A stretch of DNA of 64,000 nt, taken from assembly GCA_900550495.1 (NCBI GenBank), contig URSJ01000003.1, positions 18,227-82,226 of the forward strand. The letters run 5' to 3'. The notes beneath the pieces are model-generated. The model was not told the origin of the DNA. It ran no database searches and was given only the letters and a program-made list of their open reading frames with translations. The translations under genes were made by a program, and so were the position numbers. This DNA comes from an uncultured Rickettsiales bacterium (lineage in GTDB: Bacteria > Pseudomonadota > Alphaproteobacteria > Rs-D84). Positions 13,942-38,445 of this stretch are shown piece by piece (within the stretch, counting starts at the first letter, position 1; the number at the start of each line of letters is the position of its first letter).

Positions 13942-13958
13942 ACTGTCTGAATATCTCT
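13942..13958 (+). other. 3' half of the 16S processing stem
   Basis: Complementary to 12205-12221. Confidence 0.6.
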
Positions 13959-13982
13959 TTTTGATGTGGGAATCTTTCTGCT

Positions 13983-14059
13983 GGGTCAGTAGTTCAGTTG
14001 GTTAGAATGCCGCTCTGATACAGCGGAGGTCGAAGATTCGAGTTCTTCCTGACCCACCA
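13983..14059 (+). tRNA. tRNA-Ile (anticodon GAU) in the 16S-23S spacer
   Basis: Cloverleaf GGGTCAG..CTGACCC-A-CCA. Anticodon arm CCGCT-CTGATAC-AGCGG. T-loop TTCGAGT. Confidence 0.95.
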
Positions 14060-14364
14060 CTTAAATTTGATGAGGTTGGAATCAGAAATGATTTAATCAT
14101 TTTTGATTCCAGATGTTCCATGATGAATATCGTCGGAATCTGCTTTTATAGCAATACATTGTGAATCGGTTTTTATGTCGCAAATCATAAAGTTTATAGA
14201 AATATGAATTTCTTGATTTGTTGAACATCGTAATAATCTCAAAAATCTTTCTATAAGAGTAATCACGAAAGTGATAATTCAATTAGAGAACAAGAATCAA
14301 CTTAAATGCTTAAAAAACTCATTAAGTTATTTTACTGTGCATGAAGACTTTCTCTTCAAGCATA

Positions 14365-17118
<2,754 letters not shown>

Positions 17119-17208
17119 TTTTGTCTTGACTTGATAACAAGTCAAGCGTATGCTTGAAGAGAACGTTGAAGTGATTCTGATACAGAATTACGATGTTCGC
17201 TGGATTTA

Positions 17209-17324
17209 TTCTGGTGATTATTGAGCGGGAGTCACCCTCTGTTCCATTCCGAACCAGACAGGGAAACCTCGTATCGCCGATGGTACTTTGGCTTAAGCCA
17301 CGGAAGAGTAGGTCGTCGCCAGAA
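17209..17324 (+). rRNA. rrf: 5S ribosomal RNA
   Basis: ..CCATTCCGAACCAGA..GCCGATGGTACT..AGAGTAGG.. The terminal helix pairs TCTGGTGA with TCGCCAGA. Confidence 0.9.
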
Positions 17325-17412: not shown

Positions 17413-19216
17413 TTTAAGAAAAACTTTACAAAATGAACAAAAGTTTACAAAAAACATTGCAAAATGATTTTGTAAAGATTATGATATGAAAAAGGGTTGG
17501 CGTATGGAAGTGTCTTATGAATATTTGAGAGAAATGATTGGTTCAAAAGAAACGTTGTTTGTTGAATGGAAGTCAGACGATAACAACACCTTTAATGATT
17601 CTGTCTTGGTAAATTCATGTGTAGCATTGGCAAATGCAGAGGGGGGACAGCTGTTTATAGGTATAAGAGATTGTACTGGAGAAATAATAGGAAGTAAAAA
17701 AGCTCAGTTAAATAATGCTAATGAAAGAGCTTTGGAAGGATTGATTCGTTCTAGAACGATGCCAAATTTAAATGTTGATGTCATGTTTTTAAATTTACCT
17801 GACGGAAAAATAATCGTGAGAGTTGTTGTCCCTAAGGCCATTACAGTGATCGGAACAACAGATGGCAGATATTTAAAACGAGAAATTCTGCCAAGTGGTG
17901 AACCCAGTAACAAGCCAATGACACCAGATGAAATTTTTAGAAATACTACGAGTATTGGTTTTGTTGATCTATCTGCAAATATCATGTCAGGATTACATAT
18001 GGATGATATTGATATTGAATTAGTAGAAAATAGCATACGAGATGTTTTGAAAAAAGATTTGAAAGAGGAAGAAATCGCTATTTTTTCACAAGAACCGATA
18101 AATGTTTTAAAAACTTTGGGATTGGTGAATTCTGACAATATACCAAATATAGCCGCGGTGTTGTTGTTTGGAAAAGAGGAATCTTTGAAGGAAAAATTTC
18201 CAAATCATTTTGTCCAATATCAGGTCTTTGGATCGCAAGGAGAAGTGTTAAAAAATGAAAAATATTCGTTACCTATCATCAAGTTGTTGCCAAAGTTATT
18301 GGTAATGCCGGAGTTATTGAAAAATACAGATGAGTTTTTAGTAAATGCTCAAAGTCTGGTTGTACCTGAATATGCTCCTGATGCGATAAGAGAAGCCTTT
18401 GCAAACGCTATAGTCCACAGAGATTATAGTTTGTATTCAGGAATTCAGATACAAGTATTTAACGATGAATTAAACATTACAAGTGCAGGAGGTTTTGTGA
18501 AGGGGGTTTCTTTACAAAATTTGTTACGTACGCCTCCTATACCACGGAATCGCCGTTTGGCAGATGCCATGAAAGCGTTAAAGCTGGTCGAAACATCAGG
18601 TAGGGGAATAGATAAAATATATTACTTTCAAGCAAAGTATGGACGCCCCGCGCCAGACTATTCCGCATCAACTGAGAACCATGTTATTGTCAATATCTGT
18701 GGAGGAAAGGCAAATTTAGATTTTTGTAAATTTGTCTTTAGCATTAGTGACGAAATACATTTGTTTGATATGTTAATTTTAAATTACTTGTTTTATCAGC
18801 GTAGTGCAACAATGGCGCAACTGGCGTCTCTTGTCCAGTCATCAGAAATGGAGGTTCGTAGAATAACTCGAAGGTTGCTAGAAAAGAATTTGATAGAAGT
18901 GGTAGATGAAGGTAATCCTTTGTTTTTTTTAAAGGGTATGGCACCAAAGAATAAAATACGTTTAAGGGATAGTAATATTTCTGAGTATGAAAATAGTATC
19001 CAAAATTTATTGAAAGAGCATGATAAATTAAGTAGAAATGATATTGCAAAGTATATAGGTTTGTCTCCTGCTCAAACATATAGAGTATTGCTAAAAATGC
19101 AAGCGAGTGGCAAGGTTGTTATGACCGGGTATCGTTGGAAAGCGCAACAAATCTTTTTATAATCTTTTTAATATGATTTTTATAAAGATTTCTTAGAAAA
19201 ATAAAGATGCGCATCT
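17413..19216. mobile_element. More AT-rich insertion between the 97-bp direct repeats (no recognisable mobility gene)
   Basis: The segment is bounded by the duplicated 5S-3'end/terminator sequence, looks more AT-rich than its flanks, and carries a single ORF. Confidence 0.5.
17504..19162 (+). CDS. Schlafen/AlbA_2 (divergent AAA) + HATPase_c_4-type putative DNA-binding ATPase/regulator (RecG-C-terminal-like family)
   Basis: ETLFVEWKS..VALANAEGGQLFIGIRD..GEIIG (AlbA_2 pattern). IREAFANAIVHRDYS..ITSAGGF..PRNRRLADAM..ETSGRGIDKIY (HATPase_c_4 pattern). C-terminal wHTH-like region. Start ATG 17504 has AAGGG upstream; track start 17486 is also possible. Confidence 0.75.
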   Translation: MEVSYEYLREMIGSKETLFVEWKSDDNNTFNDSVLVNSCVALANAEGGQLFIGIRDCTGEIIGSKKAQLNNANERALEGLIRSRTMPNLNVDVMFLNLPDGKIIVRVVVPKAITVIGTTDGRYLKREILPSGEPSNKPMTPDEIFRNTTSIGFVDLSANIMSGLHMDDIDIELVENSIRDVLKKDLKEEEIAIFSQEPINVLKTLGLVNSDNIPNIAAVLLFGKEESLKEKFPNHFVQYQVFGSQGEVLKNEKYSLPIIKLLPKLLVMPELLKNTDEFLVNAQSLVVPEYAPDAIREAFANAIVHRDYSLYSGIQIQVFNDELNITSAGGFVKGVSLQNLLRTPPIPRNRRLADAMKALKLVETSGRGIDKIYYFQAKYGRPAPDYSASTENHVIVNICGGKANLDFCKFVFSISDEIHLFDMLILNYLFYQRSATMAQLASLVQSSEMEVRRITRRLLEKNLIEVVDEGNPLFFLKGMAPKNKIRLRDSNISEYENSIQNLLKEHDKLSRNDIAKYIGLSPAQTYRVLLKMQASGKVVMTGYRWKAQQIFL

Positions 19217-19313
19217 TCGCCAGAATAAATCCAGTCTTGTTCCACATAGCCTTGGCGAAGTGGAATAGATATAAAAACCGAAATTTGACCGCCCACGTGG
19301 CGGTTTTTTGTTT
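19217..19313 (+). repeat. 97-bp direct repeat, copy 2
   Basis: See 17316-17412. Preceded by the 14-bp palindrome aagatgcgcatctt (19204-19217). Confidence 0.95.
19287..19313 (+). terminator. Duplicate copy of the rrn terminator
   Basis: Same hairpin and T-tract as 17386-17412. Confidence 0.75.
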
Positions 19314-19345
19314 GCCATTTGCGTGGTGCATGGTAAAATGTCAGT

Positions 19346-20185
19346 ATGAAAAAAATGGATGATAATTTTCGTGGCACGCGGGGCAGTTTGCCACCACAAC
19401 TGTTTAAATATATTGATATGTCAAGAATATCTCAGACGACGACAAAGTTTGTAGAGTATATGAATAAATTGGCAGATACGTTTCATCAAAATGTTAATCA
19501 TGATGATGCGTTTGCTAGCATTAGAAATACAAAATTGAATGCCCCCGACTTGTTTGGTCAATGTGTCAAATTGCGCTATATTGACAGTGGTATAAGTGGC
19601 AGCGTATATGAAATGCGCATCGGAGACCAATGTTTTGCGTTCAAGATAAACCGTTCATCGTATTCGGACATCAGTGAATTGGAAACAATGCATTTCCAGA
19701 AAAAGGCGCGAAATTTATTAAATAAAATTTATATCGGTTCTACATTTGAATATGAAGGCAAAGTGTATTCGTGGTTATTGATGGATTATGTAGCCGCATC
19801 TAGTCAAGACACGTTTGATTTAGTGCGAGAGCGACTGTATTATGCAAATTTGACCAAGGGTTTGGTCTATGAAGACGTGTCCGAAGATAACCTGAGAAAT
19901 GGCAAGATTATTGACCGTGGCAATATGTGGCAACGTAAAATTCCTCTGGGGCGGACCGAAATAGACTTGGTCAAGAAACTGGTTTATGCCATGCGCACAG
20001 ATGATATGGTCGCGTTCGAGATATTGACATCACATGCGTTAACGTCATATCCGAAGGTTATAAATTACCTTACGATGTCGATGATGAATTTGCTGGGTGA
20101 AACGCCGGCCCGATTTAAAAAGTTCCGCGTCGTAATTTTTGATAAATCTAATATTATCAAGCAGGCAAAACACGCCGGCCGTTAA
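19346..20185 (+). CDS. Minimal protein-kinase-like fold protein
   Basis: Gly-loop IDSGISGSVY, Lys in CFAFKI, hinge LLMDYV, catalytic-loop-like YEDVSEDN (D-x4-N), DFG-like IIDRG. Confidence 0.55.
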   Translation: MKKMDDNFRGTRGSLPPQLFKYIDMSRISQTTTKFVEYMNKLADTFHQNVNHDDAFASIRNTKLNAPDLFGQCVKLRYIDSGISGSVYEMRIGDQCFAFKINRSSYSDISELETMHFQKKARNLLNKIYIGSTFEYEGKVYSWLLMDYVAASSQDTFDLVRERLYYANLTKGLVYEDVSEDNLRNGKIIDRGNMWQRKIPLGRTEIDLVKKLVYAMRTDDMVAFEILTSHALTSYPKVINYLTMSMMNLLGETPARFKKFRVVIFDKSNIIKQAKHAGR

Positions 20186-24841: not shown

Positions 24842-24870
24842 TTTACAGCACTTGGCAAAAATGTTATAAT
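24842..24870 (+). promoter_or_regulatory. Near-consensus promoter TTTACA-N17-TATAAT (with TGt extension)
   Basis: -35 at 24842-47, -10 at 24865-70. It leaves a structured 5'UTR of roughly 80 nt (depending on the start site) before ATG 24960. Confidence 0.6.
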
Positions 24871-24959
24871 TATGGGTAATAAAGGCGGAGCCTGTTTGGT
24901 GTCTGCCCCGTCAAATAACGGGTTTTCCGGGCGTTTTCCCGGATAACAGGAGAGTATTT

Positions 24960-27029
24960 ATGAAAAGCCGTAACATTGCAGATTGCTGCAAAAATGCTGT
25001 CGGAACAGTTTTCTTGTTGGCTGGCGCATTTTTTGTTTGTTCGACATTGTTATCAATACGCGCGGTATTTGCTGACCCAATTGCGCCGACTGCGGGTGCA
25101 ACGGTGACGGCACAATCGCCACGCACAATCGCCGCATCGCGTCGCGCAACATCGAACGTTGTGTCGCGTGGCACGACCGCAACACCGTCGGCAAACGTCG
25201 GGCGCAATGTTTCGTCGCGTACCATGGTGACCAGTCCGCGCACAACCACTGCCGCGACATCTCGTGGCGTTGTGTCCCGTGCAACTGGTACGTCGCGCAC
25301 AACCACAACATCGCGTAACGTTCGTGCCCGCACCGCAACATCAAGCCAGGCACGCATATCTTTGCAGGGCAGTGCAATTCGTGGCAGCAAGAAATCATCG
25401 CCCACGACATACACATACCTGGCGAATAAACTGTATACCGGCAACTATTCAAACATCATTGATTCAACAACTGGTCTAATTTCAGCCGATGCATACAACA
25501 ACTGTATGGAATCCTATTACACATGTATGGATGAAATCTGCACCGCGCGTAACACGGCGCAGCGTCGTTGTGCATGTGCAGGTCGTGTCAAGGCCTTTGC
25601 CGAAGCGGAAACAGCATTGGAATCAGCAAACGAAGAATTGATAAAAGTGTCTGGTGAATTGGCACTGTTGATTGCGAACAAGGGCAAGGATGTATCTGAT
25701 GCATTCCAGTTGACCGATGCAGAAAAGGTTATGAACTGTGTTTCGTGGCAGGAAGTGACCCAGAAATACGGAACTAATTCTGAACAAGCTATTGCGTGGT
25801 GCAATAACCACTCTATTTATGGCGAAAATGGGAATAAATTGTCCACGTGTGCAAAGCCGTCATATTGCACTGTATCGGGTAATAACTTTGGGTTCGATAT
25901 TGCTAATATTGATGGTTCTTCCAGTGATATTTTGGCGTCACTGCAATCATGGGCAGACGCCAAGGAAAATACATTGACAATTTTGACCGATGATACGGAC
26001 AATTTGACCAGTGCGTTTGACAATCTGTCAAATGTTGTTTCTGGGTTGGCTGGGATTGACGGCGCATTGAGTGACAGTAATAGTTTAAAAGATTCGTTGG
26101 CCCAAACATGGGGATATGAATTGTTTGAATACGCGCACAATAATGTTTGTAACCGCGTATTGGATTCCTGCTTTAATGGCATATACGAGGCGTGCGGAAC
26201 TCCGCCGTCGTCTGGTCGTAAATGTGGTAACGGTGCGTCCCAGTGTCCGTATAATTACAACAGTTATATCAGCGTATCCAATACCGGCACGTATGAACTG
26301 AATTTTATTACGGCAAATTCTGGATATACTGCGTCAAACAGCGCGACTTGTTTTGGATACACTTCATCGTCGGGCGATCCTTATTCAACGTTGCGTGGAC
26401 CTGTGGCTGATGCGCGTCGCAGTATTATGCAAAAGTATGCGCTGGACGCAAACGCAGATTGTGATTCATACGGCGAACAGTTGCGCAAAACAGCCCAGAA
26501 TATAGGCTATCAAAAGGTTGCCGCGCAACAGGCTTTGCAACAAAAACGTTTAGAATTTGTAACCGAAGAAAAGACATCGGTGTTGAATGCCGCGGTTGCA
26601 GCAGGAACGAATTTCAACGAATGTATCAGCGAAATTTACGACTGTTATGAAACCCAGGCAAAGTCAAATGCATCATGGACAACTGCGCGTATCAGAACAT
26701 ATTGCGCCCAGATTGCGAATGTTCCGCATTGCTATGAAGAAATGATTTGCAATCCGTCGAATTCGCCATTCAAGGCCGTTATAGACAAGGCTGATAATGC
26801 CCAGTGCAAGAATACCGTGGATTATACAACCAATACGTGCCGCAATGTTGTTACATTGAACGATATTTTGAATGGCACAGGTGCGACCGAGGCTGTTGAA
26901 TGCAAATTTGGCGATGGCCAGACGTGTGATTCTGCGGCAATGCGCCAGAAATGTTTGTTGGACGCAATCGGAACCGATGGCACCAATACAAATAAAAATG
27001 TTTTACAGACTTGGAAAAAGTCAGAGTAA
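24960..27029 (+). CDS. Secreted protein: Arg/Ser/Thr-rich low-complexity region + CX6C modules + coiled-coil-like segments
   Basis: Signal-anchor/signal peptide ..LLSIRAVFA. R/S/T-rich region at nt 25116-25385 with repeated VVSR-like motifs. Module CMESYYTCMDEIC..RRCAC from nt 25503 is homologous to the 28051 gene. Confidence 0.75.
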   Translation: MKSRNIADCCKNAVGTVFLLAGAFFVCSTLLSIRAVFADPIAPTAGATVTAQSPRTIAASRRATSNVVSRGTTATPSANVGRNVSSRTMVTSPRTTTAATSRGVVSRATGTSRTTTTSRNVRARTATSSQARISLQGSAIRGSKKSSPTTYTYLANKLYTGNYSNIIDSTTGLISADAYNNCMESYYTCMDEICTARNTAQRRCACAGRVKAFAEAETALESANEELIKVSGELALLIANKGKDVSDAFQLTDAEKVMNCVSWQEVTQKYGTNSEQAIAWCNNHSIYGENGNKLSTCAKPSYCTVSGNNFGFDIANIDGSSSDILASLQSWADAKENTLTILTDDTDNLTSAFDNLSNVVSGLAGIDGALSDSNSLKDSLAQTWGYELFEYAHNNVCNRVLDSCFNGIYEACGTPPSSGRKCGNGASQCPYNYNSYISVSNTGTYELNFITANSGYTASNSATCFGYTSSSGDPYSTLRGPVADARRSIMQKYALDANADCDSYGEQLRKTAQNIGYQKVAAQQALQQKRLEFVTEEKTSVLNAAVAAGTNFNECISEIYDCYETQAKSNASWTTARIRTYCAQIANVPHCYEEMICNPSNSPFKAVIDKADNAQCKNTVDYTTNTCRNVVTLNDILNGTGATEAVECKFGDGQTCDSAAMRQKCLLDAIGTDGTNTNKNVLQTWKKSE

Positions 27030-27030
27030 T

Positions 27031-27058
27031 AAAAAACGGGGCACGGCCCCGTTTTTTA
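27031..27058 (+). terminator. Rho-independent terminator
   Basis: ACGGGGC-AC-GGCCCCGT followed by a T6 tract. Confidence 0.8.
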
Positions 27059-27165
27059 TTAGAGAGCAGAGTGCGATGTATTTGCTCGCGCCACTCACAG
27101 CGTCATAGACCTGGATTTTGGGGACGTGGGCTTTTTCGTATGCGTCATCGGCGCACTGTTACTTT

Positions 27166-27340: not shown

Positions 27341-27640
27341 ATGAGCAATTTCGCAATCTTTCAAACCGGTGGCAAACAGTATCGTGTCCAAGCGGGCGAT
27401 ATTATCAAGGTTGAAAAACTGGATGCCGAAGGTTCGGTCGAATTTGACCAGGTTTTGATGATTGGTGACAAGGTTGGGACACCGTTTGTTGACGGGGCCA
27501 AGGTTATTGCCACTGTCGTTGAACAGAAACGCGCTGACAAGGTTTTGGTGTTCAAGAAAAAACGCCGCCAGAACTATCGCCGCACACGTGGCCATCGTCA
27601 GTATATCACTGTTGTAAAAATCGCAGAGATTAAAGGCTAA
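27341..27640 (+). CDS. rplU: 50S ribosomal protein L21
   Basis: [27 protein letters not shown]... Confidence 0.95.
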
Positions 27641-27651: not shown

Positions 27652-27912
27652 ATGGCACACAAGAAAGCAGGTTCGGCGACCACTAATGGACGCGACTCGG
27701 CCGGACGCCGTTTAGGTGTTAAAAAATCCGGTGGCAGCCGTGTTATCCCAGGTAATATCATCATTCGCCAGCGTGGCACATCTGTGCACCCGGGCTTGAA
27801 TGTTGGCATGGGCAAGGATCACACATTGTTCGCAAAAATTGCGGGCATTGTGAAGTTCAAAAAAGGTTTTGGTGACCGCAAGACTGTTTCCGTTGAACCT
27901 GAATCCAAATAA
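27652..27912 (+). CDS. rpmA: 50S ribosomal protein L27
   Basis: [42 protein letters not shown]. Confidence 0.95.
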
Positions 27913-27948: not shown

Positions 27949-27994
27949 GATAGTAATGAATATGTCCGCAACTGCGGACATATTCATTACTATC
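27949..27994. repeat. 46-bp perfect palindrome (22-bp arms)
   Basis: gatagtaatgaatatgtccgca-ac-tgcggacatattcattactatc. Confidence 0.95.
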
Positions 27995-28050: not shown

Positions 28051-30363
28051 ATGAAAAGGTTTCTGACATGTTTTGTTGCGTTGGCGTGCTTTTCGCCGGC
28101 GGCGTTTGCCACCGACGGTGCTGTAACGCCATCGCGTTTAATTCCGGGAACAAATGAAAAATCATCGTCGCCTGTGGCAATGTCTAACGGTGTAGATGGG
28201 GTGGGGGGCGTCACGGCAACTGCGACCATGTCTGAGGGCGCATCTCCATCGGTTGTGTCACGTTCCGCGACCAGAACATCAACAAATACCACCACCGCGG
28301 TACGCAGTGGCGCGCGCAGCGTAAATATCCCAGATGCCACCAAAACAACAAGCGGCGCGCGCAGCACGGGCGTTGTGTCGTCGCGTGGTAATGCGGCGTC
28401 GCGCGTTTCGGCCGGCACAGATACCAGTGGAAATAATCGCACGGGGTTGGATGCCGGGGTGAATACCGTCGGGCGCAGTGCCCGCACCGATGCGGCCAGT
28501 ATAAATAATAATCCGGCGGTCCGTCGTGCCGGCGTTGTTTTGCGTCCCACCACGGCCGAGGTTGGCGGTCGCGCCCATATCGCAGGCACTGATGTTCAAA
28601 CCGGTTCAAATATTTCGTTTGGCGCACGCAGTGTGACATCACGCGCGGCGTCCAAGACCGCAACCGCCGAAACAGTCAAAGAGGCCAAAGAACGCCTGGA
28701 ACAAACGGCCAGTCTGAACAAATCGTGCCAAGAACAATATAACGACTGTATGGACCAGTTTTGTGCGGTCATTGATTCTAATCAAAAGCGATGCAGTTGC
28801 AGTGCGAACCTGTCCAAATATACCAAGGTTGAAACCGCGGTCAAAGATGCTAATACCCAGTTGAACGAGGTGGCCCAGCGTATTCGTTATGTTGGTCTGT
28901 CGGCCGACGAAATTCGCGCAATTATGACCGCGACCGAGGCCGAAGATGCACTTAGTGGCACAACAGACACAACCGAAACGCGCAATATGCTGACGGAAAT
29001 AGAAAAGTTGATAAAGGACCCGAAAAGTTCAACGTCATATTCTGACACCTATACTGGGCTGGATATGGACCTGGATTTCACGTCTGATAGTTCGGATTTA
29101 TTTAATCTGGATTTCTTGAATATGAATACGTCCAGTTTTTCAAATCTGCGTGGAACAGAATTATACAGTGCGGCAAAAAAACGTTGCAACACGATATTGA
29201 CTCAGTGTAAAGAAGTTGGGGCAACATCGCAACAAATTACGGGTAACTATGACTTGGCAATTGACAAGGATTGTATCGCGTATGAACAGGGCTTGACCAA
29301 GATGAATGAAACATTGGTGTCCAATGTGCGCAGTGCAAATCGTATGTTGCAAAAGGCGCGTCTGGCTGTGTTGCAAAATAAGAATCAATATGATGCCAAG
29401 GGTTGTATTAGTGCACTGGATACATGTATGACCGATGATATGGTGTGTGGTGAGGATTATTCAAAATGTTTAGATCCGACCAAGACATATATTGATGAAA
29501 ATGGCAAGGTTGTCTTGGGGCAGAATATTACTAATATAACCGCGTTTATGCAAAATTATAATAATGCAAATATAAATACGGAATTTCTAGAAACTGCATC
29601 CGGCGTCAGTATAAATACGGATACGTGCAAGTCATCGCAATATTCCGATGGAACATGCATTGTTAAGTATTTATTAAAGAAAATCGGAACAAAGCAAAAG
29701 GTCACAGACGAGGGGTTATGTCGTGCCGTCTTGGATAAATGCCAGGCATATACATACGATTCCAACGGCAAATACAAGCCATACAATGATGTTGTCGTGA
29801 ATTATGTCCAACGTGCCATGGTCAATGTCAAGGCTGCCCAGCAACAGATTATATCCGATTATGCGTCATCATGTATGGTTGACATCGCATCATGCTATAA
29901 CCAACAGGTAACCCAGGTGAATGCATGGTCATCAACGGCCAGTGTCGCCAGTGTGTATAACGTCATGCGTGGTGCGTGCCGTAACGTTGCATTGACGTGT
30001 GCATATGCTGTATTCGCCAAAGATACGACCAGTTGTCCATCTGGTAATGATGAAATGTGTATCAACAGCATATCGGAAATGTTCTATCAGTCATTGTTAT
30101 GCCCGACAAATTCAATATATCAAGCAACCGAGGGAAGCGTTGGCACAAACGGCTATGTGAACAGCAGATGCAAATGTAATGTTGGCTATGAACCATACAG
30201 TGGTCAGTGTTTGCCAGCGTGCGGTTCAAATGAAACGCGTAATTCATACGGAACATGTGCATGTATTTCTGGCTATTCCAAGGTAAATGGTGTATGTGTC
30301 CAGAATGCATCAGGTGGTTCAACAGGCGAAAGCACATCGGGTGGTTCAACCAGTGGCAGTTAA
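28051..30363 (+). CDS. Secreted protein: Arg/Ser/Thr-rich region + CX6C modules + C-terminal EGF-like Cys module and Gly/Ser tail
   Basis: Signal peptide MKRFLTCFVALACFSPAAFA. R/S/T-rich region at nt 28243-28662. CQEQYNDCMDQFC..KRCSC from nt 28726. C-terminal CKCNVGYEPYSGQC..CACISGYSKVNGVC (~30099-30360). Confidence 0.75.
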   Translation: MKRFLTCFVALACFSPAAFATDGAVTPSRLIPGTNEKSSSPVAMSNGVDGVGGVTATATMSEGASPSVVSRSATRTSTNTTTAVRSGARSVNIPDATKTTSGARSTGVVSSRGNAASRVSAGTDTSGNNRTGLDAGVNTVGRSARTDAASINNNPAVRRAGVVLRPTTAEVGGRAHIAGTDVQTGSNISFGARSVTSRAASKTATAETVKEAKERLEQTASLNKSCQEQYNDCMDQFCAVIDSNQKRCSCSANLSKYTKVETAVKDANTQLNEVAQRIRYVGLSADEIRAIMTATEAEDALSGTTDTTETRNMLTEIEKLIKDPKSSTSYSDTYTGLDMDLDFTSDSSDLFNLDFLNMNTSSFSNLRGTELYSAAKKRCNTILTQCKEVGATSQQITGNYDLAIDKDCIAYEQGLTKMNETLVSNVRSANRMLQKARLAVLQNKNQYDAKGCISALDTCMTDDMVCGEDYSKCLDPTKTYIDENGKVVLGQNITNITAFMQNYNNANINTEFLETASGVSINTDTCKSSQYSDGTCIVKYLLKKIGTKQKVTDEGLCRAVLDKCQAYTYDSNGKYKPYNDVVVNYVQRAMVNVKAAQQQIISDYASSCMVDIASCYNQQVTQVNAWSSTASVASVYNVMRGACRNVALTCAYAVFAKDTTSCPSGNDEMCINSISEMFYQSLLCPTNSIYQATEGSVGTNGYVNSRCKCNVGYEPYSGQCLPACGSNETRNSYGTCACISGYSKVNGVCVQNASGGSTGESTSGGSTSGS

Positions 30364-30365
30364 AT

Positions 30366-30391
30366 AAAAAACGCCCGTTTGGGCGTTTTTT
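30366..30391. terminator. Bidirectional terminator between convergent genes
   Basis: AAAAAACGCCC-GTTT-GGGCGTTTTTT. Confidence 0.8.
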
Positions 30392-31067
30392 ATTTGGTTA
30401 TTTCTTCCATAAATTTATTATGATTTTCCAATTCATCAGCGTGTGCTGGGAATGTGCGACGTGGAAAATCCGCGCCGATTTTCGGGTGCTTTAAAAACGC
30501 GTTGTGTTGTTCTGCGATGACGTCATTTATATCGGGTGCAGGTGCGGTGTTTTCCAATTCCTTGTAGACCTTGGCCAAAATTTCAGCGTCAATCAGTGCA
30601 CCATGTGCGTCGGCACGTGCAGTCAGTGATATGCCATACCATTTTGCCAACGCGTCCAGTGAATAACTTTTGGGGCCAAATACGCGGTTGCGTGCGATGA
30701 CAATAGAGTCCAGTTGTCGGCTGCGCGGAATCTGGGGCAGGTTTAACATTTCCAATTCATGATTTATAAATGGAAAGTCAAAGTCAATTCCATTATGTGC
30801 GACCAGTGGTGCATCGCCAATGAATTCCAAAAATTTTGGCGCAACGACGGACATTTTCGGTTTATCTTCCAAAAACGCATTAGAAATTTTGTGAACCATA
30901 TATGTTTCTGGGGGAATAATCTTACCTTCTGGATTTATATATTCGTGGAAAGTATTATCGGTAATTTGCCCATCAATCATTTCAACTGCGCCAATTTCAA
31001 TACAGCGATCGCCACGCAAATATTCAAAACCTGTTGTTTCAATGTCAAAGCAAATAACGCGCCCCAT
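30390..31067 (-). CDS. dnaQ: DNA polymerase III epsilon subunit (3'-5' exonuclease)
   Basis: Exo I FDIETTG, Exo II VAHNGIDFDFPF, Exo III HGALIDAEILAKVY. Confidence 0.9.
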   Translation of the reverse strand: MGRVICFDIETTGFEYLRGDRCIEIGAVEMIDGQITDNTFHEYINPEGKIIPPETYMVHKISNAFLEDKPKMSVVAPKFLEFIGDAPLVAHNGIDFDFPFINHELEMLNLPQIPRSRQLDSIVIARNRVFGPKSYSLDALAKWYGISLTARADAHGALIDAEILAKVYKELENTAPAPDINDVIAEQHNAFLKHPKIGADFPRRTFPAHADELENHNKFMEEITK

Positions 31068-33237: not shown

Positions 33238-34527
33238 TTATTTTTTGTCCCCGCCTTTGCGGATAATTTTATACCACTTGGTGGCGGTATCGGTCACGTT
33301 ATTCAGTAATTTTTTGCCATCTTGTTTAATCTTGTCGCCCATGCTGGCGTCAATACTGCCCCCGATTTTTTTAGCAATTTCGTCGGCTCGATTGGCCAGG
33401 TATGCAACCAACATTGCCGTCAACAGCGTGACAAAGAAATCGCTGTTGTTTATGCTGGGCACATGCGTTGCCAAATCTGCGTCCACAGCGCCCGCCAGCA
33501 GTGCGCCACATACTGCAATCACGATGGATAGCGATACAAAGTAAATTGCTGCGTTTATAAAACGCATTATCTGTGATTGTAATGATTCAACTTTGAACAG
33601 TCCCAGAAAACCATTGTATATTGTGCCAGCAATTCCCTTGTATGAAGTTTTGCCGACTGTTTCGACAACTGCGGTAAATGGCAACATAAACACAGCCAAG
33701 AACAAATCGGCAATAACCCCCAGTGCCATAAATGCAAACTTGAATCCCAAGTACACAAACAATACAACGAATGTCAGGCCTACGACAAATGTGAACATAC
33801 TGTGTCCAATTCCGGCCAGCATCCATTTAAAACCGGCCACCACCGCAGTATAGAAAAATCCAGACAACCGTGTCGGCACACACAGCATATCGGCTGCGGC
33901 ATTTGCGTCAATTGTCATACGCGCTGATGTATGTGCGGTGGCGTATTCACGAATCGCGCCACATGTATCGGGCAGCGATGCACCAGATGCGGCGGCCACC
34001 GCGTTTAATATCAAATCAGACATATACGTGCCAACGGTTACAATTGGCCCCATAACCCACATAAATATCTGACCCGGGCCAAATCGCAATACTATAATCC
34101 ATATCGCAATCAGTGCGCCTTTCTTGACAATTTTTTCGGCCAATTCGCGCACATTTGATTTGGTGGTCATCATCTGGTATGCCTCGAACATAATCCAGAA
34201 CATGTATGCTAAAACAATAAATATAATCATAAAACGCACCAGTGATGTATCCAGTATTTCGCCCACCATGGACAGTGCGTTCATAAATGCCAGACCGGCT
34301 TTAGCCTCAACCGGGACATAATTATCAACTAATTGCACCTTGTGAAATCCGTTTAAATCGCGGGTCAGTTGCCCTGTCAGTATATCTTTGTTATGGTCTG
34401 TTGCCCACGTTCCGTAATCACCAATATCACCAGTTGTTGTAGTATTTGTTGCACTAAATGCAGGCATGACAAACATCAGGGCGCCACACATTATGATTTT
34501 TGTAAAAAATCGCATCAATTTTTTCAT
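33238..34527 (-). CDS. TrbL/VirB6-like polytopic membrane protein, paralogue A
   Basis: Signal peptide ..MFVMPAFSA, at least 6 hydrophobic segments, Cys pair in the central loop (TCGAIREY..MLCVPTR), core motif LAVFMLPFTAVVETVGKT, Lys-rich tail ..RKGGDKK. Confidence 0.6.
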   Translation of the reverse strand: MKKLMRFFTKIIMCGALMFVMPAFSATNTTTTGDIGDYGTWATDHNKDILTGQLTRDLNGFHKVQLVDNYVPVEAKAGLAFMNALSMVGEILDTSLVRFMIIFIVLAYMFWIMFEAYQMMTTKSNVRELAEKIVKKGALIAIWIIVLRFGPGQIFMWVMGPIVTVGTYMSDLILNAVAAASGASLPDTCGAIREYATAHTSARMTIDANAAADMLCVPTRLSGFFYTAVVAGFKWMLAGIGHSMFTFVVGLTFVVLFVYLGFKFAFMALGVIADLFLAVFMLPFTAVVETVGKTSYKGIAGTIYNGFLGLFKVESLQSQIMRFINAAIYFVSLSIVIAVCGALLAGAVDADLATHVPSINNSDFFVTLLTAMLVAYLANRADEIAKKIGGSIDASMGDKIKQDGKKLLNNVTDTATKWYKIIRKGGDKK

Positions 34528-35963
34528 CAGTCTTTCTTTGCCATTGCCTTTGATATTGCGTCAAAAATTTGTTGTGGGGCAGACCAAATTTTTTTACCTA
34601 ACTCTTTGGTCCATGTGCCAAAGTCGAACAATTCGCGCCCATCCTTGCCCAGCATTGCGTCAATTCGTGGCGATACCGCATAGAAATACAACAGGAACAT
34701 AAAGAACATTATCAGCAAGAAATCCCACCCATCGGCCAGAAAATCAAACGCACCCGGATATTGACGTTCAACCATCGCACGCTGTGCGGTAAAGCAATCT
34801 TTGAATTTGTCGGCATCCATTTCGCCGTCGGCCAATCCAACCCGTTCACAGGTTGAAAACACGTTCATCACAGACAGTGTTTGCGCATCTGGGTTTTGGA
34901 CGGTCTGGCCCATAAATGGTGGCATAATCACGCTGTATCCATCGTGGGGACCGGGGAAAAATTCATCGGCGGCAAATGAAACCGTTGCATAGATAATCAA
35001 AACTTTCAGTGAAATCGCAACAATTCGAACCGCCGATTTTACCAGCATATTTATCGCACCACCGACAACGTTACTGGCCAGTTTCCATGTCCCATCAAAC
35101 GCGTATGCCGCGACCAACAGTGGCAAGAATATAATCAGAAATACCAGTTTAAATACAACCGACAAAACCTGGAAAAACAAATCAAATCCGATTATCAAAA
35201 ACATTATGACCAGTGCCAATCCTGCAACCCATGTAAATGCGCCACCGCCCATCCCCAGCCATGCGTAATTCATCATTGCAAATCCGCCCGCCGCCCCGGC
35301 CAGCATAACACTGTTTAAATTTCCCATAACGCACATGAACGGTTGCAATACCGGGTTTAATATATCGCCCGTCGCGGCCGCGTCCATTGCGCCACATTGC
35401 GTTGCGTCGGTCACCCCGGTCGCTGCCATTGATAATTCTGCACCGACATACATCACGGGGGTAATTGTTATGTTTGTTATCGCGCGCAGTGCGGTTGTTC
35501 CGCCCATACCTAAAACACCCAGTACCGCGCCAACCAACATCACGCGCACGCCCTGACGCCATACCTTGTCAAACCAGGCAGAAAATTCCAGCTTTTTGTC
35601 CCCACCGTCCAGCGTGGTCGTTTGCTTTGCCGCGTCAAAAATGTATTGCGCGGTATAAACAAACAGGAAAATTCCAAACCCAATTACCAGCAATATCCAA
35701 ATGTTGTCCAGCATTGCCGTCCAGAACATTTCGGCGGCGTCACTGATTACTGTAAATAATTCGGCAATGTATCCACACATAAAGCAGCCGTTTGCCGCCG
35801 CAATATCGTCAGACGCGCCGATTGCCGACATAAAGTTATCCATGCTGGTATACGTCAATGCCGCCCCGCCAATTGACGATGACAAATACCATATCCCCAA
35901 CCCCAGGGCAATTGCCCACATAACAACACGGATGGCGATAGAAATCAGTTTTGCCTTCATCAT
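34527..35963 (-). CDS. TrbL/VirB6-like polytopic membrane protein, paralogue B
   Basis: N-terminal C-F-M-C motif, loop Cys pair (QCGAM..FMCVMG), core FLIIFLPLLVAAYAFDGTWK that closely resembles my recollection of the VirB6 core (..GPLILVGYIFDRT..), tail ..AMAKKD. The stop overlaps the next start by 1 nt. Confidence 0.65.
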   Translation of the reverse strand: MMKAKLISIAIRVVMWAIALGLGIWYLSSSIGGAALTYTSMDNFMSAIGASDDIAAANGCFMCGYIAELFTVISDAAEMFWTAMLDNIWILLVIGFGIFLFVYTAQYIFDAAKQTTTLDGGDKKLEFSAWFDKVWRQGVRVMLVGAVLGVLGMGGTTALRAITNITITPVMYVGAELSMAATGVTDATQCGAMDAAATGDILNPVLQPFMCVMGNLNSVMLAGAAGGFAMMNYAWLGMGGGAFTWVAGLALVIMFLIIGFDLFFQVLSVVFKLVFLIIFLPLLVAAYAFDGTWKLASNVVGGAINMLVKSAVRIVAISLKVLIIYATVSFAADEFFPGPHDGYSVIMPPFMGQTVQNPDAQTLSVMNVFSTCERVGLADGEMDADKFKDCFTAQRAMVERQYPGAFDFLADGWDFLLIMFFMFLLYFYAVSPRIDAMLGKDGRELFDFGTWTKELGKKIWSAPQQIFDAISKAMAKKD

Positions 35964-37141
35964 TTTTCGTCACCACCCTTGACAATTGTTTTTACGGTCT
36001 TGGCCGCGGTTTCAACAACGCGCCGCGTCAGTGTTTCGGCGTCATTTGCCAATTGGTCGCCCAATTTGTGATCTTCGCCAACGCCAAATGTATCCAGAAC
36101 CATACTTGTAACCTTGGGTATTTGTGCCTGGATAAAATTCAGAACGTAAATCAACACAACACTGCTGGCGATACCCAATTCGGCCAGGTTGTCATCTGAT
36201 AAATCCGCGTCAAAGACATCGCCCGATAATATTACCTGCATTAAATCTGCGCTGGTGGTGCCGTGTGCGGCAAAAAACGTCGCAATCAACACCATAATAA
36301 CAGTGTATGTCAGCACCGCCGACGCCAATGCGATAATTGCATTCATCAGGTTTTTAAATTGTCCTACACCCAAACTGGATCCAATTTTAGACATCCATGA
36401 TGGAACGTCGGACGCGCCCTTGAACGATACCAGCATCAGGGACAATGGGAAAAAGAACGCAAAAAACGTCATAGCGATAATAATGTCGGCAAAGTAAAAA
36501 CAGAAACGACAAAATAATTTGAAAAATCCATACGCCAAATACAGACCCACAAAGAATATGATAATGTGCTTTATCAATGCGCCGATACCCAGTAATGCCT
36601 TCCAGGTGAACGCACTGTCCATCACGGCAATGCCCAGTTTAATAAAGGTCTGGAACTGGGTAATCGTTGTCTTCATCAACAATATAATTTTGTCGCGCAT
36701 TTCTGGACGATAGAATCCCGTGTCGTCCATTTTCATGGGTTGGTATGTAACCTTTTCGTTCACGGTTTCGGTGTCGGTCTGCAACATTGTTTGGGTGTAT
36801 CCGATTGCGATTTCGGTTGCCGGTTCAAACGTGATTTGCGTCATAAATCGCGGCACCATCACGCCCAGGCTCAACAGTGACAACGCCACCAATGAATTTA
36901 TAATAACAGGGCGCACCGACTTTGAATACCATGGGTCGCGCATTCCGCCACGGATATTTTGCCACACGGCATTGATGATAAAGAACGCAAAGAATACACA
37001 AAATAATATGACGCAAAAAATGGTAAATTGTTTATATACCGCACCTGCCGCATATGACACAACTTGAAACAGGCGGTCAAATACCGCGCAGCCCCAACAT
37101 TGGACTGATGTATCCACCAAAGAATTCATCCAGCCGTTCAT
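35960..37141 (-). CDS. TrbL/VirB6-like polytopic membrane protein, paralogue C
   Basis: N-terminus ..CWGCAVFDRLF.. followed by ..NIRGG.., core FFAFFFPLSLMLVSFKG, tail ..VKGGDEK. 4-nt overlaps with both neighbours. Confidence 0.6.
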   Translation of the reverse strand: MNGWMNSLVDTSVQCWGCAVFDRLFQVVSYAAGAVYKQFTIFCVILFCVFFAFFIINAVWQNIRGGMRDPWYSKSVRPVIINSLVALSLLSLGVMVPRFMTQITFEPATEIAIGYTQTMLQTDTETVNEKVTYQPMKMDDTGFYRPEMRDKIILLMKTTITQFQTFIKLGIAVMDSAFTWKALLGIGALIKHIIIFFVGLYLAYGFFKLFCRFCFYFADIIIAMTFFAFFFPLSLMLVSFKGASDVPSWMSKIGSSLGVGQFKNLMNAIIALASAVLTYTVIMVLIATFFAAHGTTSADLMQVILSGDVFDADLSDDNLAELGIASSVVLIYVLNFIQAQIPKVTSMVLDTFGVGEDHKLGDQLANDAETLTRRVVETAAKTVKTIVKGGDEK

Positions 37142-38445
37142 TTCTTTTTAGCCCAGCCTGCTGCGTTAAATATCTTTTTGCCCCAATCCTTGGTTCCATT
37201 CCACAGTGTTTTGCGGTCACTGTTGACCTGTTTATACAGGTTATCCATACCAGAACCTACGTATTTATCCAGTTGCTTGCGCGTCAATTCAAATATGCGC
37301 AACATTACATAGAACGTCAGAATTGATGACAGCCACAGCACAGAATGATTGCCAAATCCCATCGCACTGTGTGCCATCTGAGGCATATTTGTTGATGTCG
37401 CGCTGCCCGCTGCAACGACAAAGACAGAACTAGACCATTGGAACAGAGATTTTATAATTGCCAGATTTATGCACAGGATAAATGCACATGCAATCATCGT
37501 AATAATCAGCTGTTGCAGTGATTTCGTTATCCCAGAAAATGCCGGCCATATGTCAAATATCTTGTCCGGATTTTTCGGCTTTGCGACCCAAATCAATACC
37601 TGGAACGGATACAGAATCAACGCCATGCCGAAATTGAATATCCCCTGAATAATCAACAGTGCCATAAATATATTACTGGACACAAACGTTGTTACCAATA
37701 AAATTCCTGTAATCAAATTAAGAAAATCTTCGCCACCGTGGGGCACCAGTGTAGTCAGCCCGCGCAGGCCCTGTATAATAAAATCGAACCCGCGTTTGAT
37801 AATTTGATTATTTGCGTGCGACAGGTCGGCAACCGGTTGAACCAAGAATTCACACGATTCGCGACTAATCCACTCTTTCTGGACAATCGATTCGGGACAT
37901 TCAACCTTGTCTGTGGTGGCACCGCCGGTGTTGTCATTTATCGTTTCGGTTATCGCGTGTGTGTATAATGACCCAAATTGCAAGAACGGGTTTATCAACC
38001 ATTGTGTTACATACACGGGTCTGATTTGCAACAGAACAACGGCGGCAATCAATGCGCGAAATCCTGGTTGCATAACATTTTTTATAATTGTTTCACCGGT
38101 GACGCCTGACGCCATATTACCGCCACCAGAAAATCCGAAAAAAGAAACCCATACTTTTGGTAAATATAATTTTATTAGATACAGCGCAATCGATACCGCC
38201 AAAAATCCCCAGACCAAAACATATATAATGCCGGTCCCGTTACCGACAAAGAAATCATATCCGCCGGTTGCAATTTGCATCATCGCGTCCAGCACCATTG
38301 GCACCATCGGCGACAGATCCAATGCGTCAACAATTCCGTATTCGGCGTGCGCTGGGAATGGCAATGCAAACAACGCCAGCCCAACCAACATTGGGCATAT
38401 CGCGCGCGACGCGCGAAACAAAAACTGGCGCAGTGACAAATACAT
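37138..38445 (-). CDS. TrbL/VirB6-like polytopic membrane protein, paralogue D (first gene of the minus-strand operon)
   Basis: Signal peptide ..LALFALPFPAHA, loop Cys pair (ECPES..ESCEF), core MALILYPFQVLIWVAKP, tail ..GWAKKK. Confidence 0.55.
   Translation of the reverse strand: MYLSLRQFLFRASRAICPMLVGLALFALPFPAHAEYGIVDALDLSPMVPMVLDAMMQIATGGYDFFVGNGTGIIYVLVWGFLAVSIALYLIKLYLPKVWVSFFGFSGGGNMASGVTGETIIKNVMQPGFRALIAAVVLLQIRPVYVTQWLINPFLQFGSLYTHAITETINDNTGGATTDKVECPESIVQKEWISRESCEFLVQPVADLSHANNQIIKRGFDFIIQGLRGLTTLVPHGGEDFLNLITGILLVTTFVSSNIFMALLIIQGIFNFGMALILYPFQVLIWVAKPKNPDKIFDIWPAFSGITKSLQQLIITMIACAFILCINLAIIKSLFQWSSSVFVVAAGSATSTNMPQMAHSAMGFGNHSVLWLSSILTFYVMLRIFELTRKQLDKYVGSGMDNLYKQVNSDRKTLWNGTKDWGKKIFNAAGWAKKK

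Follow-up and report, generated by a model that had tools for sequence, protein, structure and literature searches.

Among described proteins, OmcB of Chlamydia, a reduced-genome and host-dependent bacterium, offers an analogy of build for the two proteins analyzed here: Sec-type export, a basic N-terminal segment and then a large Cys-rich body, which in OmcB is disulfide-bonded in the envelope. Helices joined by disulfides are seen in the twin CX9C (CHCH) and twin CX3C proteins of the mitochondrial intermembrane space, in which two disulfides staple an antiparallel helix hairpin. TolA, TonB and Lpp resemble the proteins reported here in having an N-terminus located at the inner membrane or peptidoglycan, or close to them, followed by a low-complexity spacer and a structured domain. 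The Rs-D84 / Enterousia bacteria are widespread inhabitants of human, bird, ruminant and termite guts, with genomes of <1 Mb and almost no biosynthetic capacity (PMC12306168). Candidatus Enterousia has been proposed to depend on partner cells, and for Rs-D84 bacteria an obligately symbiotic or parasitic life, sustained by metabolites drawn from other cells, has been proposed (PMC12306168).

Two large Cys-rich genes were identified on the + strand of the 64-kb window, the whole stretch of DNA that was analyzed, which derives from Candidatus Enterousia (order Rs-D84), a gut alphaproteobacterium; all features given below lie on this strand. Gene A (24960..27029) encodes a 689-aa exported Cys-rich protein with 29 Cys overall and 26 past the signal, and gene B (28051..30363) encodes a 770-aa exported Cys-rich protein with 32 Cys overall and 30 past the signal. 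Both open reading frames (ORFs) were confirmed at exactly the coordinates given by a first-pass annotation of this DNA, and the start of A is common to its orthologues. A longer B start at 27997 was rejected, as the orthologues begin with MKRF or MKKF, which corresponds to 28051, and the 27997 start also overlaps a perfect 20-bp hairpin with a weak T tail (27949..27994) located between rpmA and B. A promoter-like site, TTTACA-17-TGnTATAAT (24842..24870), lies about 90 nt 5' of A and was assigned by consensus match alone (11/12), and an AGGAGAG ribosome-binding site for A is present at 24948-24954. A strong terminator-like hairpin with a T tract (30358..30399) is located 3' of B. The genes rplU (27341-27640) and rpmA (27652-27912), assigned by Pfam Ribosomal_L21p and Pfam L27 at the orthologous locus, are positioned between A and B. 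This flanking arrangement, to which the annotation had drawn attention, holds in this genome but is incidental, as A directly adjoins B in several genomes. Ribosomal genes are absent between A and B at loci L022, L062, L070, L055 and L075, and a functional link to rplU-rpmA was rejected on this basis.

The two proteins share a five-Cys module, C-x6-C-M-D-x2-C-x9-C-x-C, together with the helix that follows it (A residues 182-260, 25503..25739; B residues 226-300, 28726..28950). The block originally quoted as homologous aligns as written, A182-227 against B226-271, with 17/46 positions identical as counted by eye. A BLASTP comparison of A with B returned an E-value of 4e-10, and profile-profile comparison of the two orthologue families returned 6e-12 with a probability of 97.5%. 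A module hidden Markov model (HMM) constructed with the A family left out recovered A (1e-20) and B (6e-36) and no other protein of the 64-kb window, and the A-family profile matched a profile of distant members with an E-value of 5e-23 over 82 columns. The homology of A and B is backed by profile comparison across the 55-82-residue module only, and the BLASTP alignment runs on at 23% identity as far as A437/B481. A chance or low-complexity artefact was rejected because the significant alignment falls in the Cys module, outside the biased region. With a significant alignment and no characterized family matched, the proposed paralogy of A and B stands by way of the common module.

Mean identity of the A module among orthologues was 94%, with a dN/dS of 0-0.01, and the dN/dS of the B module was 0-0.05. 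Across 124 non-redundant superfamily members, no variation was seen at the five module cysteines of B (226, 233, 238, 248 and 250). Both A and B carry the ordered set of export signal, cationic Arg-rich segment, C-x6-C-[ML]-[DN]-x2-C-x9-C-x-C motif and helix. B additionally carries a ladder of cysteines at 379, 386, 408, 452, 466, 473, 564, 608, 615, 643, 650 and 684, which are invariant or 98% conserved in the 124 non-redundant members. This B-type ladder is absent from A, and because A aligns with the superfamily only over the module, A is a divergent branch with nothing but the module in common.

A search among 1.84 billion proteins yielded 107 clusters at 50% identity that match the family, and all named members are Rs-D84 / Enterousia-type gut Alphaproteobacteria, in agreement with the earlier suggestion that the family is lineage-specific. 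To judge from their sequences, A and B represent separate paralogue types within a superfamily restricted to gut Alphaproteobacteria of the Rs-D84 / Candidatus Enterousia lineage. Each genome has at least three such types, namely A-type, B-type and a roughly 1000-aa type, the last of which adjoins pth-polA in one human-gut and one termite-gut genome. The family is thus expanded insofar as each genome holds more than one type, but the expansion is modest, with three types and only two copies in the 64-kb window. More than 1000 homologues of A were found, every one unnamed or hypothetical, and none of the 240 close homologues has a precomputed Pfam assignment. A Pfam-A scan left A without a family and gave FapA as the best match to B, at 14 bits against a cut-off of 31, while the best NCBIfam matches reached 13.7 and 9.5 bits, where the cut-offs are 160 and 131. 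No match to A or B was obtained with PADLOC, nor with tblastn of B against 50,697 phage records or of A against 72,556 plasmid records. Given these results and the housekeeping context in conserved synteny (PagL-A-(L21-L27)-B-dnaQ-uvrD among orthologous loci), a prophage, plasmid or defence origin was rejected.

The proteins at 5774 and 47414, which had been noted for a similar Arg-rich N-terminal stretch, are not members of the family, and the module HMM matches neither. The 5774 protein (protein C) gave a BLASTP E-value of 0.04, and its profile comparison covered a 37-column twin-CX6C hairpin only (E-value 0.0025, probability 12%). Protein C belongs to a different Cys-rich family, with a building style in common with A and B rather than demonstrated homology. 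The 47414 protein (protein D) lacks cysteine altogether and is OmpA-like at its C-terminus, though below threshold, and a Cys-rich protein at 54115-55893 was likewise set aside, having no module HMM match.

Sec-type export signals were read from the sequences of both proteins, as the annotation had claimed. Residues 1-38 of A (24960..25073) form an export signal or possibly an uncleaved signal anchor, based on orthologue alignment and the AlphaFold2 model. Read by eye, this signal opens with a basic n-region and continues through 19 aa of hydrophobic core to a VFA sequence, followed by DP at the predicted cleavage site. Mean pairwise identity among orthologues over residues 1-38 is 83%, versus 50% in the next segment; G15-P43 is invariant in orthologues that are about 70% identical overall, and residues 7-35 are modelled as a helix by AlphaFold2. 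For B, residues 1-20 (28051..28110) form a cleavable-type signal peptide with AFA preceding TDG, supported by sequence and orthologue alignment; read by eye, the N-terminus is MKRFLTCFVALACFSPAAFA followed by TDG. A conserved lipobox ([LVI][ASTVI][GAS]C) was not found in A, B or their orthologues. B contains VALAC FS, the Cys of which is missing from many orthologues (for example P0176 and P0227), and C27 of A sits within the hydrophobic core, with 11 further signal residues after it.

Each signal is followed by a basic tail. In A, residues 40-145 (25077..25394) form a disordered Arg/Ser/Thr/Ala-rich cationic tail with VVSR/SRT-type motifs, containing 15 Arg, 2 Lys and 0 Asp/Glu (net +17, pI 12). 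Its pLDDT is <50, the AlphaFold2 model being disordered over residues 30-155, and its length in orthologues is 100-151 aa with a dN/dS of 0.24-0.32. In B, residues 21-130 (28111..28440) form a variable disordered Ser/Thr/Ala/Arg-rich tail with 37% mean identity, a length of 70-137 aa among orthologues and a dN/dS of 0.25-0.41; its pLDDT is also <50, with disorder modelled over residues 13-207. Residues 131-200 of B (28441..28650) form a conserved basic linear segment, LDAxVNTVGRxAR...RRAGxxLRPxTAEVGGRA...QTGSN, that has 74.5% identity, fixed length among orthologues, a dN/dS of 0.07-0.13 and no confident fold, and that is kept in P0291, which is 56% identical overall. Over residues 22-215, B has 18 Arg and 5 Lys against 13 acidic residues (pI 11.5). 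Outside the tails both A and B are acidic (pI 4.7-4.85). The low-complexity ranges claimed previously translate to residues 53-142 of A and 65-204 of B, and their Arg-rich, basic composition was confirmed. The same polarity holds across the family: the pre-module segment is net positive in 428/428 members (median +16), with Arg making up 84% of its basic residues versus 38% elsewhere, and the remainder of the protein is acidic (median -22). Size variation of the tails by strand slippage was rejected, as there is no tandem repeat at the DNA level in those segments.

The structures of A and B were predicted with AlphaFold2, with low overall confidence (pTM 0.42-0.46, mean pLDDT about 65). Residues 261-689 of A (25740..27026) are predicted to form an acidic, mostly alpha-helical Cys-rich body that contains one 91-residue helix (479-569) and has a dN/dS of 0.04-0.08. 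Residues 362-683 of B (29134..30099) are predicted to form an all-alpha Cys-stapled core with a pLDDT of 80-95, rising to >90 over residues 440-620; its superfamily-invariant cysteines are those of the ladder from 379 to 650 (386 at 98%), and residues 452-473 form the hairpin motif C-x6-C-x6-C-x6-C. Beyond the core, residues 684-751 of B (30100..30303) are modelled as strands, consistent with small beta-hairpin EGF/furin-like Cys repeats, and have a dN/dS of at least 0.24. The copy number of these repeats differs among orthologues, with variable extensions in P0229 and P0291. The B C-terminus gave weak Foldseek matches to RSPO2 Fu1-Fu2 and EGF domains (E-values of 4-8), no Pfam EGF family reaches an E-value of 1 against B, and superfamily member P0401 carries a precomputed PF12662 (cEGF) match. 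Foldseek against the PDB found nothing at an E-value of <=0.001 for either model (mean pLDDT about 65), a profile search of PDB sequences gave a best E-value of 0.8, and Foldseek against BFVD found no relative for B. A C-terminal outer-membrane beta-barrel of the autotransporter/type V kind is absent; the models are helical with short hairpins at the end of B, and no Pfam barrel was matched.

The further CX6C pairs that had been remarked upon exceed random placement in both proteins, with 8 observed in B versus 1.1 expected (p<5e-5) and 4 observed in A versus 1.0 expected (p=0.012). Cys counts are even in 89-92% of family members. Cysteines B459 and B557 are gained or lost jointly in 25/25 members, an inserted CX6C pair is gained or lost as a pair in 85/85 members, and the cysteines at B662 and B670 behave likewise. 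This heptad CX6C spacing, the even counts and the pairwise gain and loss point, indirectly, to disulfide staples in preference to free thiols or metal sites. No Dsb-like gene was found among the ORFs scanned within the 64-kb window.

Whole-gene dN/dS was 0.06-0.10 for A and 0.10-0.15 for B, compared with 0.05-0.13 for uvrD and similar values for PagL. A and B are therefore under strong purifying selection, with a module dN/dS near 0. Together with the conserved synteny among housekeeping genes, this selection marks A and B as core components and not rapidly varying antigens. Arguments point both ways on the surface or host-interaction roles that the annotation had suggested. A fast-evolving interaction role is disfavoured because their dN/dS matches that of the housekeeping neighbours. 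The variable parts of the proteins are the ends, namely the N-terminal tail and the C-terminal repeats. In comparison with a close strain (L005), the DNA of A and B is 70-86% identical while flanking genes are 92-100% identical, and dS is 0.8-1.05 at A and B versus 0.2 in flanking genes. A and B are thus local divergence hot spots between close strains. Some outward exposure is favoured because the N-terminal tail and C-terminal EGF-like end are relaxed and length-variable and because the genes are such hot spots.

The reading that we favour, plausible though short of probable, is that A and B have a structural role as rods of the envelope or surface, with the cationic tail as their tether, a function that we infer. 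In each protein the Sec-type export signal is followed by a disordered tail of 100-200 residues, strongly cationic and almost wholly arginine-based, and then by the invariant module, a helix-loop-helix that contains five cysteines. The remaining 450-500 residues form an acidic body predicted to be all-alpha, with its helices probably pinned by disulfides at heptad CX6C spacing, and the body of B closes in variable EGF-like hairpins. Such proteins could act in the cell envelope or at the cell surface as rods that are rigid and resist proteases. Electrostatic attraction to the arginine tail may hold the rods to the anionic envelope (peptidoglycan, phospholipid, or the phosphates of lipid A or core) or, alternatively, to a neighbouring subunit through its acidic body. 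The common module may serve as a docking or oligomerization element, and the variable C-terminal end would be directed away from the cell. The architecture, the homology, the restriction to one lineage and the purifying selection are established by the analysis, as is the indirect evidence of disulfides, whereas localization beyond the inner membrane, tethering by the tail and any assembly are what we infer. Because the host genome is <1 Mb and lacks biosynthetic pathways, retention of several proteins of 700-1000 aa implies an important role. The surface form of this reading is weakened by the strong sequence conservation, which is unusual for surface-exposed gut-bacterial proteins, and the disulfide model is weakened insofar as 13-15 disulfides per protein are hard to square with a strict fermenter reported to be without respiratory chains. 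Periplasmic retention may also occur, because no outer-membrane route is evident (no beta-barrel, lipobox or recognizable secretion-system signal).

Rods of this kind might instead be adhesins that bind a partner cell (bacterium, protist, host epithelium or mucus), with contact made either by the arginine tail or by the EGF-like repeats at the distal end, which is possible but rather doubtful. Arg-rich segments bind anionic cell surfaces, which fits this reading. The C-terminal EGF-like Cys repeats with their variable copy number and the cEGF match of P0401 also fit an adhesin, and the divergence of A and B from strain L005 is the pattern expected where exposed loci exchange alleles. Uncharacterized membrane and secreted proteins of Rs-D84 have been suspected of mediating contact (PMC12306168). 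However, dN/dS is low throughout and conservation peaks in the N-proximal module rather than at a distal tip, no known adhesin domain or outer-membrane export route is present, and A in this genome has no EGF-like end. An unlikely reading is that A and B are periplasmic scaffolds or tethers, likened to Lpp, TolA and periplasmic coiled-coil filaments such as CrvA, with the N-terminus on peptidoglycan or, for A, in the inner membrane, and with the helical rods setting envelope spacing or stiffness. Constraint at the level of housekeeping genes, a Sec signal with no outer-membrane targeting feature, the presence of peptidoglycan synthesis genes, and the invariant, helix-like hydrophobic N-terminus of A, which fits a retained anchor, are in line with this role. 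Ala-Asp or Asp is found at the predicted cleavage site of A and many B orthologues, and outer-membrane proteins of Brucella and Agrobacterium are cross-linked to peptidoglycan through an N-terminal Ala-Asp (PMC10787603). By eye, some B orthologues have a predicted mature end of ADT or ADG, and P0291 has ADV, but the match is partial, since this B begins with TDG and mature A would start with the Asp of DP. Unlike A and B, the proteins known to be linked to peptidoglycan are beta-barrels, and the variable EGF-like repeats and mosaic divergence are hard to fit to a purely internal role.

It is quite improbable that A and B are secreted effectors or toxins whose helical bodies act on the membranes of partners or competitors, the arginine tail being a targeting or cell-penetrating segment and the conserved acidic-hydrophobic loop at B 326-361 (DLDF..DLFNLDFL) a membrane-active element. 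An Asp/Phe/Leu-rich loop is conserved in B-type and third-type proteins, and the least insignificant Foldseek matches include helical domains of colicin Ia, pyocin S5 and Tc-toxin, but these matches are insignificant (E-value of at least 0.6, TM-score <=0.15). No immunity-like small gene adjoins A or B, no PADLOC, phage or plasmid link was found, and an effector is also disfavoured because the chromosomal synteny is conserved, the orthologues are single-copy and purifying selection is strong. A metal-binding or redox function, in which the cysteines would ligate metals or buffer thiols with no structural disulfides, has very little probability. The high Cys content (4.2%) and conserved motifs such as C-x-C and C-x4-C would suit it, but A and B are exported, the cysteines lie at i/i+7 on predicted helices with even counts and strictly pairwise gain and loss, no conserved His or Asp partners lie beside them, and no metalloprotein family was matched.

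As large conserved exported proteins without outside relatives, A and B are prime candidates for the basis of the Enterousia lifestyle, with candidate roles in envelope architecture, attachment and exchange with a partner. It is also possible, though unlikely, that A, B and the ~1000-aa paralogue are subunits of a new surface assembly, a disulfide-stapled helical coat or spike docked by the module and arginine tails, with which the bacterium attaches to another gut cell and takes up its metabolites. If true, the fold would be novel, and so would this type of apparatus for episymbiotic attachment outside Patescibacteria; if A and B are ordinary periplasmic scaffolds, they are merely a new domain of unknown function. 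Stapling of long helices by heptad-spaced cysteines, if true, would be an unusual route to stability in the protease-rich gut. The analysis defines a searchable family by module motif and cysteine ladder and provides domain boundaries for expression constructs, and A and B are now clear targets for antibodies, metaproteomics and cryo-electron tomography.

The gamma-retroviral CX6CC motif differs from the module, which is C-x6-C-x4-C with no CC. The last ~70 residues of B, modelled as beta-hairpins with C-x-C...G-Y/F...C patterns, recall EGF/furin/ephrin-receptor-like repeats, but in B these are an appendage outside the family-defining part with no Pfam match above threshold. The structured domain of TolA, TonB or Lpp is not found in A or B, and the tail is Arg/Ser/Thr-rich, not Pro/Lys/Glu- or Ala/Lys-rich. 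The elongated surface coat proteins and receptors represented by trypanosome VSG and haptoglobin-haemoglobin receptor and by clusterin are, like A as predicted, long helical bundles with disulfides, and appear among the top Foldseek matches of A, although insignificantly (E-values of 1.4-8, TM-score <=0.22), which demonstrates no relationship of fold. These proteins are eukaryotic and anchored differently, and the fast evolution of VSGs contrasts with the strong purifying selection on A and B. B 452-473 and several sites in protein C resemble a CHCH-type stapled hairpin, the pairing being predicted, but Cys spacing in A and B peaks at 7 (CX6C), with 2 CX9C in A, 2 in B and no Pfam CHCH match. 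A and B thus differ from CHCH proteins in their heptad x6 spacing instead of x9/x3 and in their many staples over 700-1000 aa, and have no homology to them. OmcB has no sequence similarity to A or B by Pfam scan and is beta-rich, in contrast to the all-alpha models of A and B, and Enterousia, in a further difference from the OmcB system, retains its peptidoglycan synthesis genes.

Two exported, cysteine-rich proteins, A (689 residues, window positions 24960-27029) and B (770 residues, 28051-30363), were compared by BLASTP (E = 4e-10) and by profile-profile alignment of their orthologue families (55 columns, E = 6e-12). An HMM of their shared five-cysteine block, hereafter called the module, was built from other family members and recovered A (1e-20) and B (6e-36); of the six-frame ORFs of the window, all of which were covered, no other matched. 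The module has the pattern C-x6-C-M-D-x2-C-x9-C-x-C and is followed by a helix. These results bear out the first-pass annotation, which had described a paralogous pair with a conserved cysteine module. At the sequence level homology is secure for the module only; elsewhere no profile-detectable similarity was found, and the two proteins share a common style of helices and CX6C pairs.

A and B are both genuine ORFs. A has a good ribosome-binding site and an upstream promoter-like site on the + strand (11 of 12 consensus matches). The start of B is best placed at 28051, where its orthologues also start, whereas the ATG further upstream (27997) overlaps with a hairpin of 20 bp; a strong terminator-like hairpin lies 3' of B. 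The perfect 20-bp inverted repeat between rpmA and B (27949-27994, + strand, weak T tail) could set B apart from the ribosomal genes as an attenuator, a processing site or a site of protein binding. Sec-type signals were read from the sequence at both N-termini. In A, the 19-residue hydrophobic core and the following VFADPIAP are invariant in orthologues that are about 70% identical overall, which is odd for a discarded signal, so an uncleaved anchor is possible.

Close homologues number more than 1000 each for A and B and are unnamed or titled "hypothetical protein [Alphaproteobacteria bacterium]". When one genome of each prokaryotic species was scanned, 534 B-type stretches were confirmed, in records titled Candidatus Enterousia or uncultured Rickettsiales or Alphaproteobacteria, from guts of humans, chickens, ruminants and others. 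When 1.84 billion cluster representatives were searched exhaustively with HMMER, only 107 clusters matched, which, with the Enterousia-type gut records, upholds the earlier proposal of a lineage-specific family. About 38 of the 107 are A-type along their full length. Most others match over the module alone and are proteins of 700-1100 residues with a signal, a basic "SRAA"-type tail and the module at residues 110-320. A third type of about 1000 residues was recovered from gut and termite-gut MAGs with a profile of distant members; its gene adjoins pth and polA in a human-gut and a termite-gut genome, and one such gene apparently shares a 781-kb contig with a B-type gene, as the two contigs have the same length. 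The distant-member profile aligned with that of the A family over 82 columns (E = 5e-23), and a ladder of invariant cysteines over about 450 residues joins B to the broad group; A is a divergent branch of the superfamily. No relatives were found in phage and plasmid collections. Enterousia / Rs-D84 are described as gut bacteria with genomes below 1 Mb and no respiratory chains; they lack pathways for making amino acids, nucleotides and lipids and are probably reliant on other cells (PMC12306168). A bin titled "Bacteroides fragilis ... cleanbin" (CAVGNU010000001.1) carries PagL-A-L21-L27-B-dnaQ-uvrD, at 72-96% protein identity; given this Enterousia gene order, the bin has probably been mislabelled or is contaminated. 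P0398, labelled "Muribaculaceae", is likely a similar case.

Neither A nor B matched Pfam, NCBIfam or PADLOC at or near threshold, and a sequence-profile search of the PDB gave no match. The first-pass annotation had named an insignificant A/B alignment or a characterised family as grounds for rejection; the alignment is significant, and these searches returned no such family. AlphaFold2 models, built on 53 and 36 aligned family sequences and of modest overall confidence (pTM 0.42-0.46), placed disordered tails ahead of the module (A 30-155, B 13-207) and all-alpha bodies after it, including a single 91-residue helix in A and a region of B (440-620) with pLDDT above 90; B also has small beta-hairpins at 688-751. 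No PDB or BFVD entry reached an E of 0.001 or lower in Foldseek, the best matches being generic long-helix proteins. A and B may thus lack a known fold, provisionally in view of the pTM values.

Cysteine spacing in both proteins peaks at one heptad, with eight CX6C pairs in B (1.1 expected, p < 5e-5) and four in A (1.0 expected, p = 0.012), which would place both cysteines of a pair on one helix face. Mature A has 26 cysteines and mature B 30, and 89-92% of members have an even number when counting starts at the module. Among 124 non-redundant members variable cysteines are gained or lost pairwise: B459 and B557 occur together in 25 of 25 members, both cysteines of an inserted CX6C pair do so in 85 of 85, and B662 varies together with B670, figures inflated by shared ancestry. 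All three observations are indirect and point the same way; the pairing and parity suggest disulfides rather than free thiols or metal sites. So many disulfides would need a source of oxidising power in a fermenter without respiratory chains.

The low-complexity cationic region noted earlier is present in both proteins. A 40-145 contains 15 Arg and 2 Lys but neither Asp nor Glu (pI 12), and B 22-215 contains 18 Arg, 5 Lys and 13 acidic residues (pI 11.5), whereas both proteins are acidic in their remaining parts (pI 4.7-4.85). No DNA tandem repeats underlie these segments. The tail is net positive in all 428 family members (median +16), with Arg accounting for 84% of the basic residues there, while the body has an acidic character (median net charge -22).

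The order PagL-A-rplU-rpmA-B-dnaQ-uvrD is retained in many species. A directly adjoins B in five loci, so what persists is the association between the A and B genes; the flanking of rplU-rpmA, to which attention had been drawn, is incidental. In comparisons with four relatives, dN/dS was 0.06-0.10 for A and 0.10-0.15 for B, against 0.05-0.13 for uvrD and 0.07-0.16 for PagL. Within the genes it was 0-0.05 for the module, 0.24-0.41 for the cationic tails and at least 0.24 for the EGF-like end of B. The module is the best conserved segment within each orthologue group (94% identity in A, 90% in B), and the tails, variable in length, are the least conserved (50% and 37%), except for the basic segment B 131-200, which is fixed in length and 74% identical. 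One comparison runs the other way: against the closest strain, DNA identity is 92-100% in the flanks (dnaQ, uvrD and ORFs downstream) and only 70-86% in distal A (25600-27100) and distal B (29500-30400); dS there is 0.8-1.05 versus about 0.2 in the flanks, four to five times higher, with dN/dS still low. Such a mosaic may have arisen through recombination or the exchange of alleles at the two loci.

Other exported proteins are encoded in the window. The product of 5765-8842 (+), previously noted for an Arg-rich N-terminal stretch like that of A and B, has 1025 residues, 39 cysteines, 13 CX6C pairs (1.4 expected), two C-x6-C-x6-C-x6-C hairpin motifs and several C-x6-C-x4-C motifs. Though cysteine-rich and exported, it is not a member of the A/B family: it is not matched by the module HMM and resembles A and B weakly, at hairpin level (E = 0.0025). 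It seems to represent a distinct family of Cys-stapled proteins. Signal-peptide ORFs lie at 54115-55893 (-; 592 residues, 22 Cys, a Gln/Ala coiled-coil-like stretch), 53346-54170 (-; 274 residues, 7 Cys) and 9564-10820 (-; 418 residues, 13 Cys), all without a Pfam match; the first is not a member of the A/B family and was not matched by the module HMM. With A, B and 5765-8842, at least six Cys-rich exported proteins are thus encoded in 64 kb of a genome below 1 Mb. The product of 47414-48691 (+), also noted before for its Arg-rich start, contains no cysteine. It has an Ala/Ser/Arg-rich tail and a sub-threshold OmpA-family match at its C-terminus (E = 0.0075), and its gene follows murG immediately, within a cluster of cell-wall genes; spacers rich in Arg, Ala and Ser may be something that envelope proteins of this organism have in common. 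A small lipoprotein-like ORF at 43556-43921 (+) matches Pfam MliC, a membrane-bound inhibitor of c-type lysozyme (E = 7e-7), and would fit direct contact with animal lysozyme. Three consecutive ORFs at 83-3697 (+), two with pseudopilin-like hydrophobic N-termini, and five at 33238-39807 (both strands, about 390-480 residues) have no Pfam match; in the latter group both ORFs whose sequences were read look like multi-pass membrane proteins, and the first ORFs are kept in relatives. The rRNA operon at 12397-17324 (+) is complete (16S, tRNA-Ile, 23S, 5S), and a tRNA scan of its 16S-23S spacer found tRNA-Ile only, without tRNA-Ala. Directly after it, 17486-20185 (+) has a GC content of 0.36 against about 0.46 elsewhere and may be acquired DNA; it encodes a Schlafen/AlbA_2, HATPase_c_4 and HTH protein and a 279-residue ORF with no significant Pfam match.

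A and B are core, vertically inherited and strongly constrained exported proteins, and are neither rapidly diversifying antigens nor mobile cargo. Based upon the cationic disordered tail, the invariant docking-like module, the rigid, disulfide-stapled acidic helical body and the variable ends, we tentatively propose structural rods in the envelope or at the cell surface, in which the tail would act as an electrostatic tether, the module could dock and the body would form the rod. Attachment to a partner or host is a possible but rather doubtful role, and that the family forms the attachment apparatus of an episymbiotic alphaproteobacterium is unlikely. A purely periplasmic scaffold or tether, for which there is a partial Ala-Asp likeness to the peptidoglycan-linked proteins of other Alphaproteobacteria (PMC10787603), is similarly unlikely. 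Secreted effectors are quite improbable, and metal or redox proteins, given the cysteine pairing and parity, are the most improbable. Any location at the cell surface would call for a route across the outer membrane. The family and its predicted fold are unannotated and without detectable relatives. The general kind is familiar, that of exported envelope proteins which are confined to one lineage, rich in disulfides and basic in a segment at the N-terminus.
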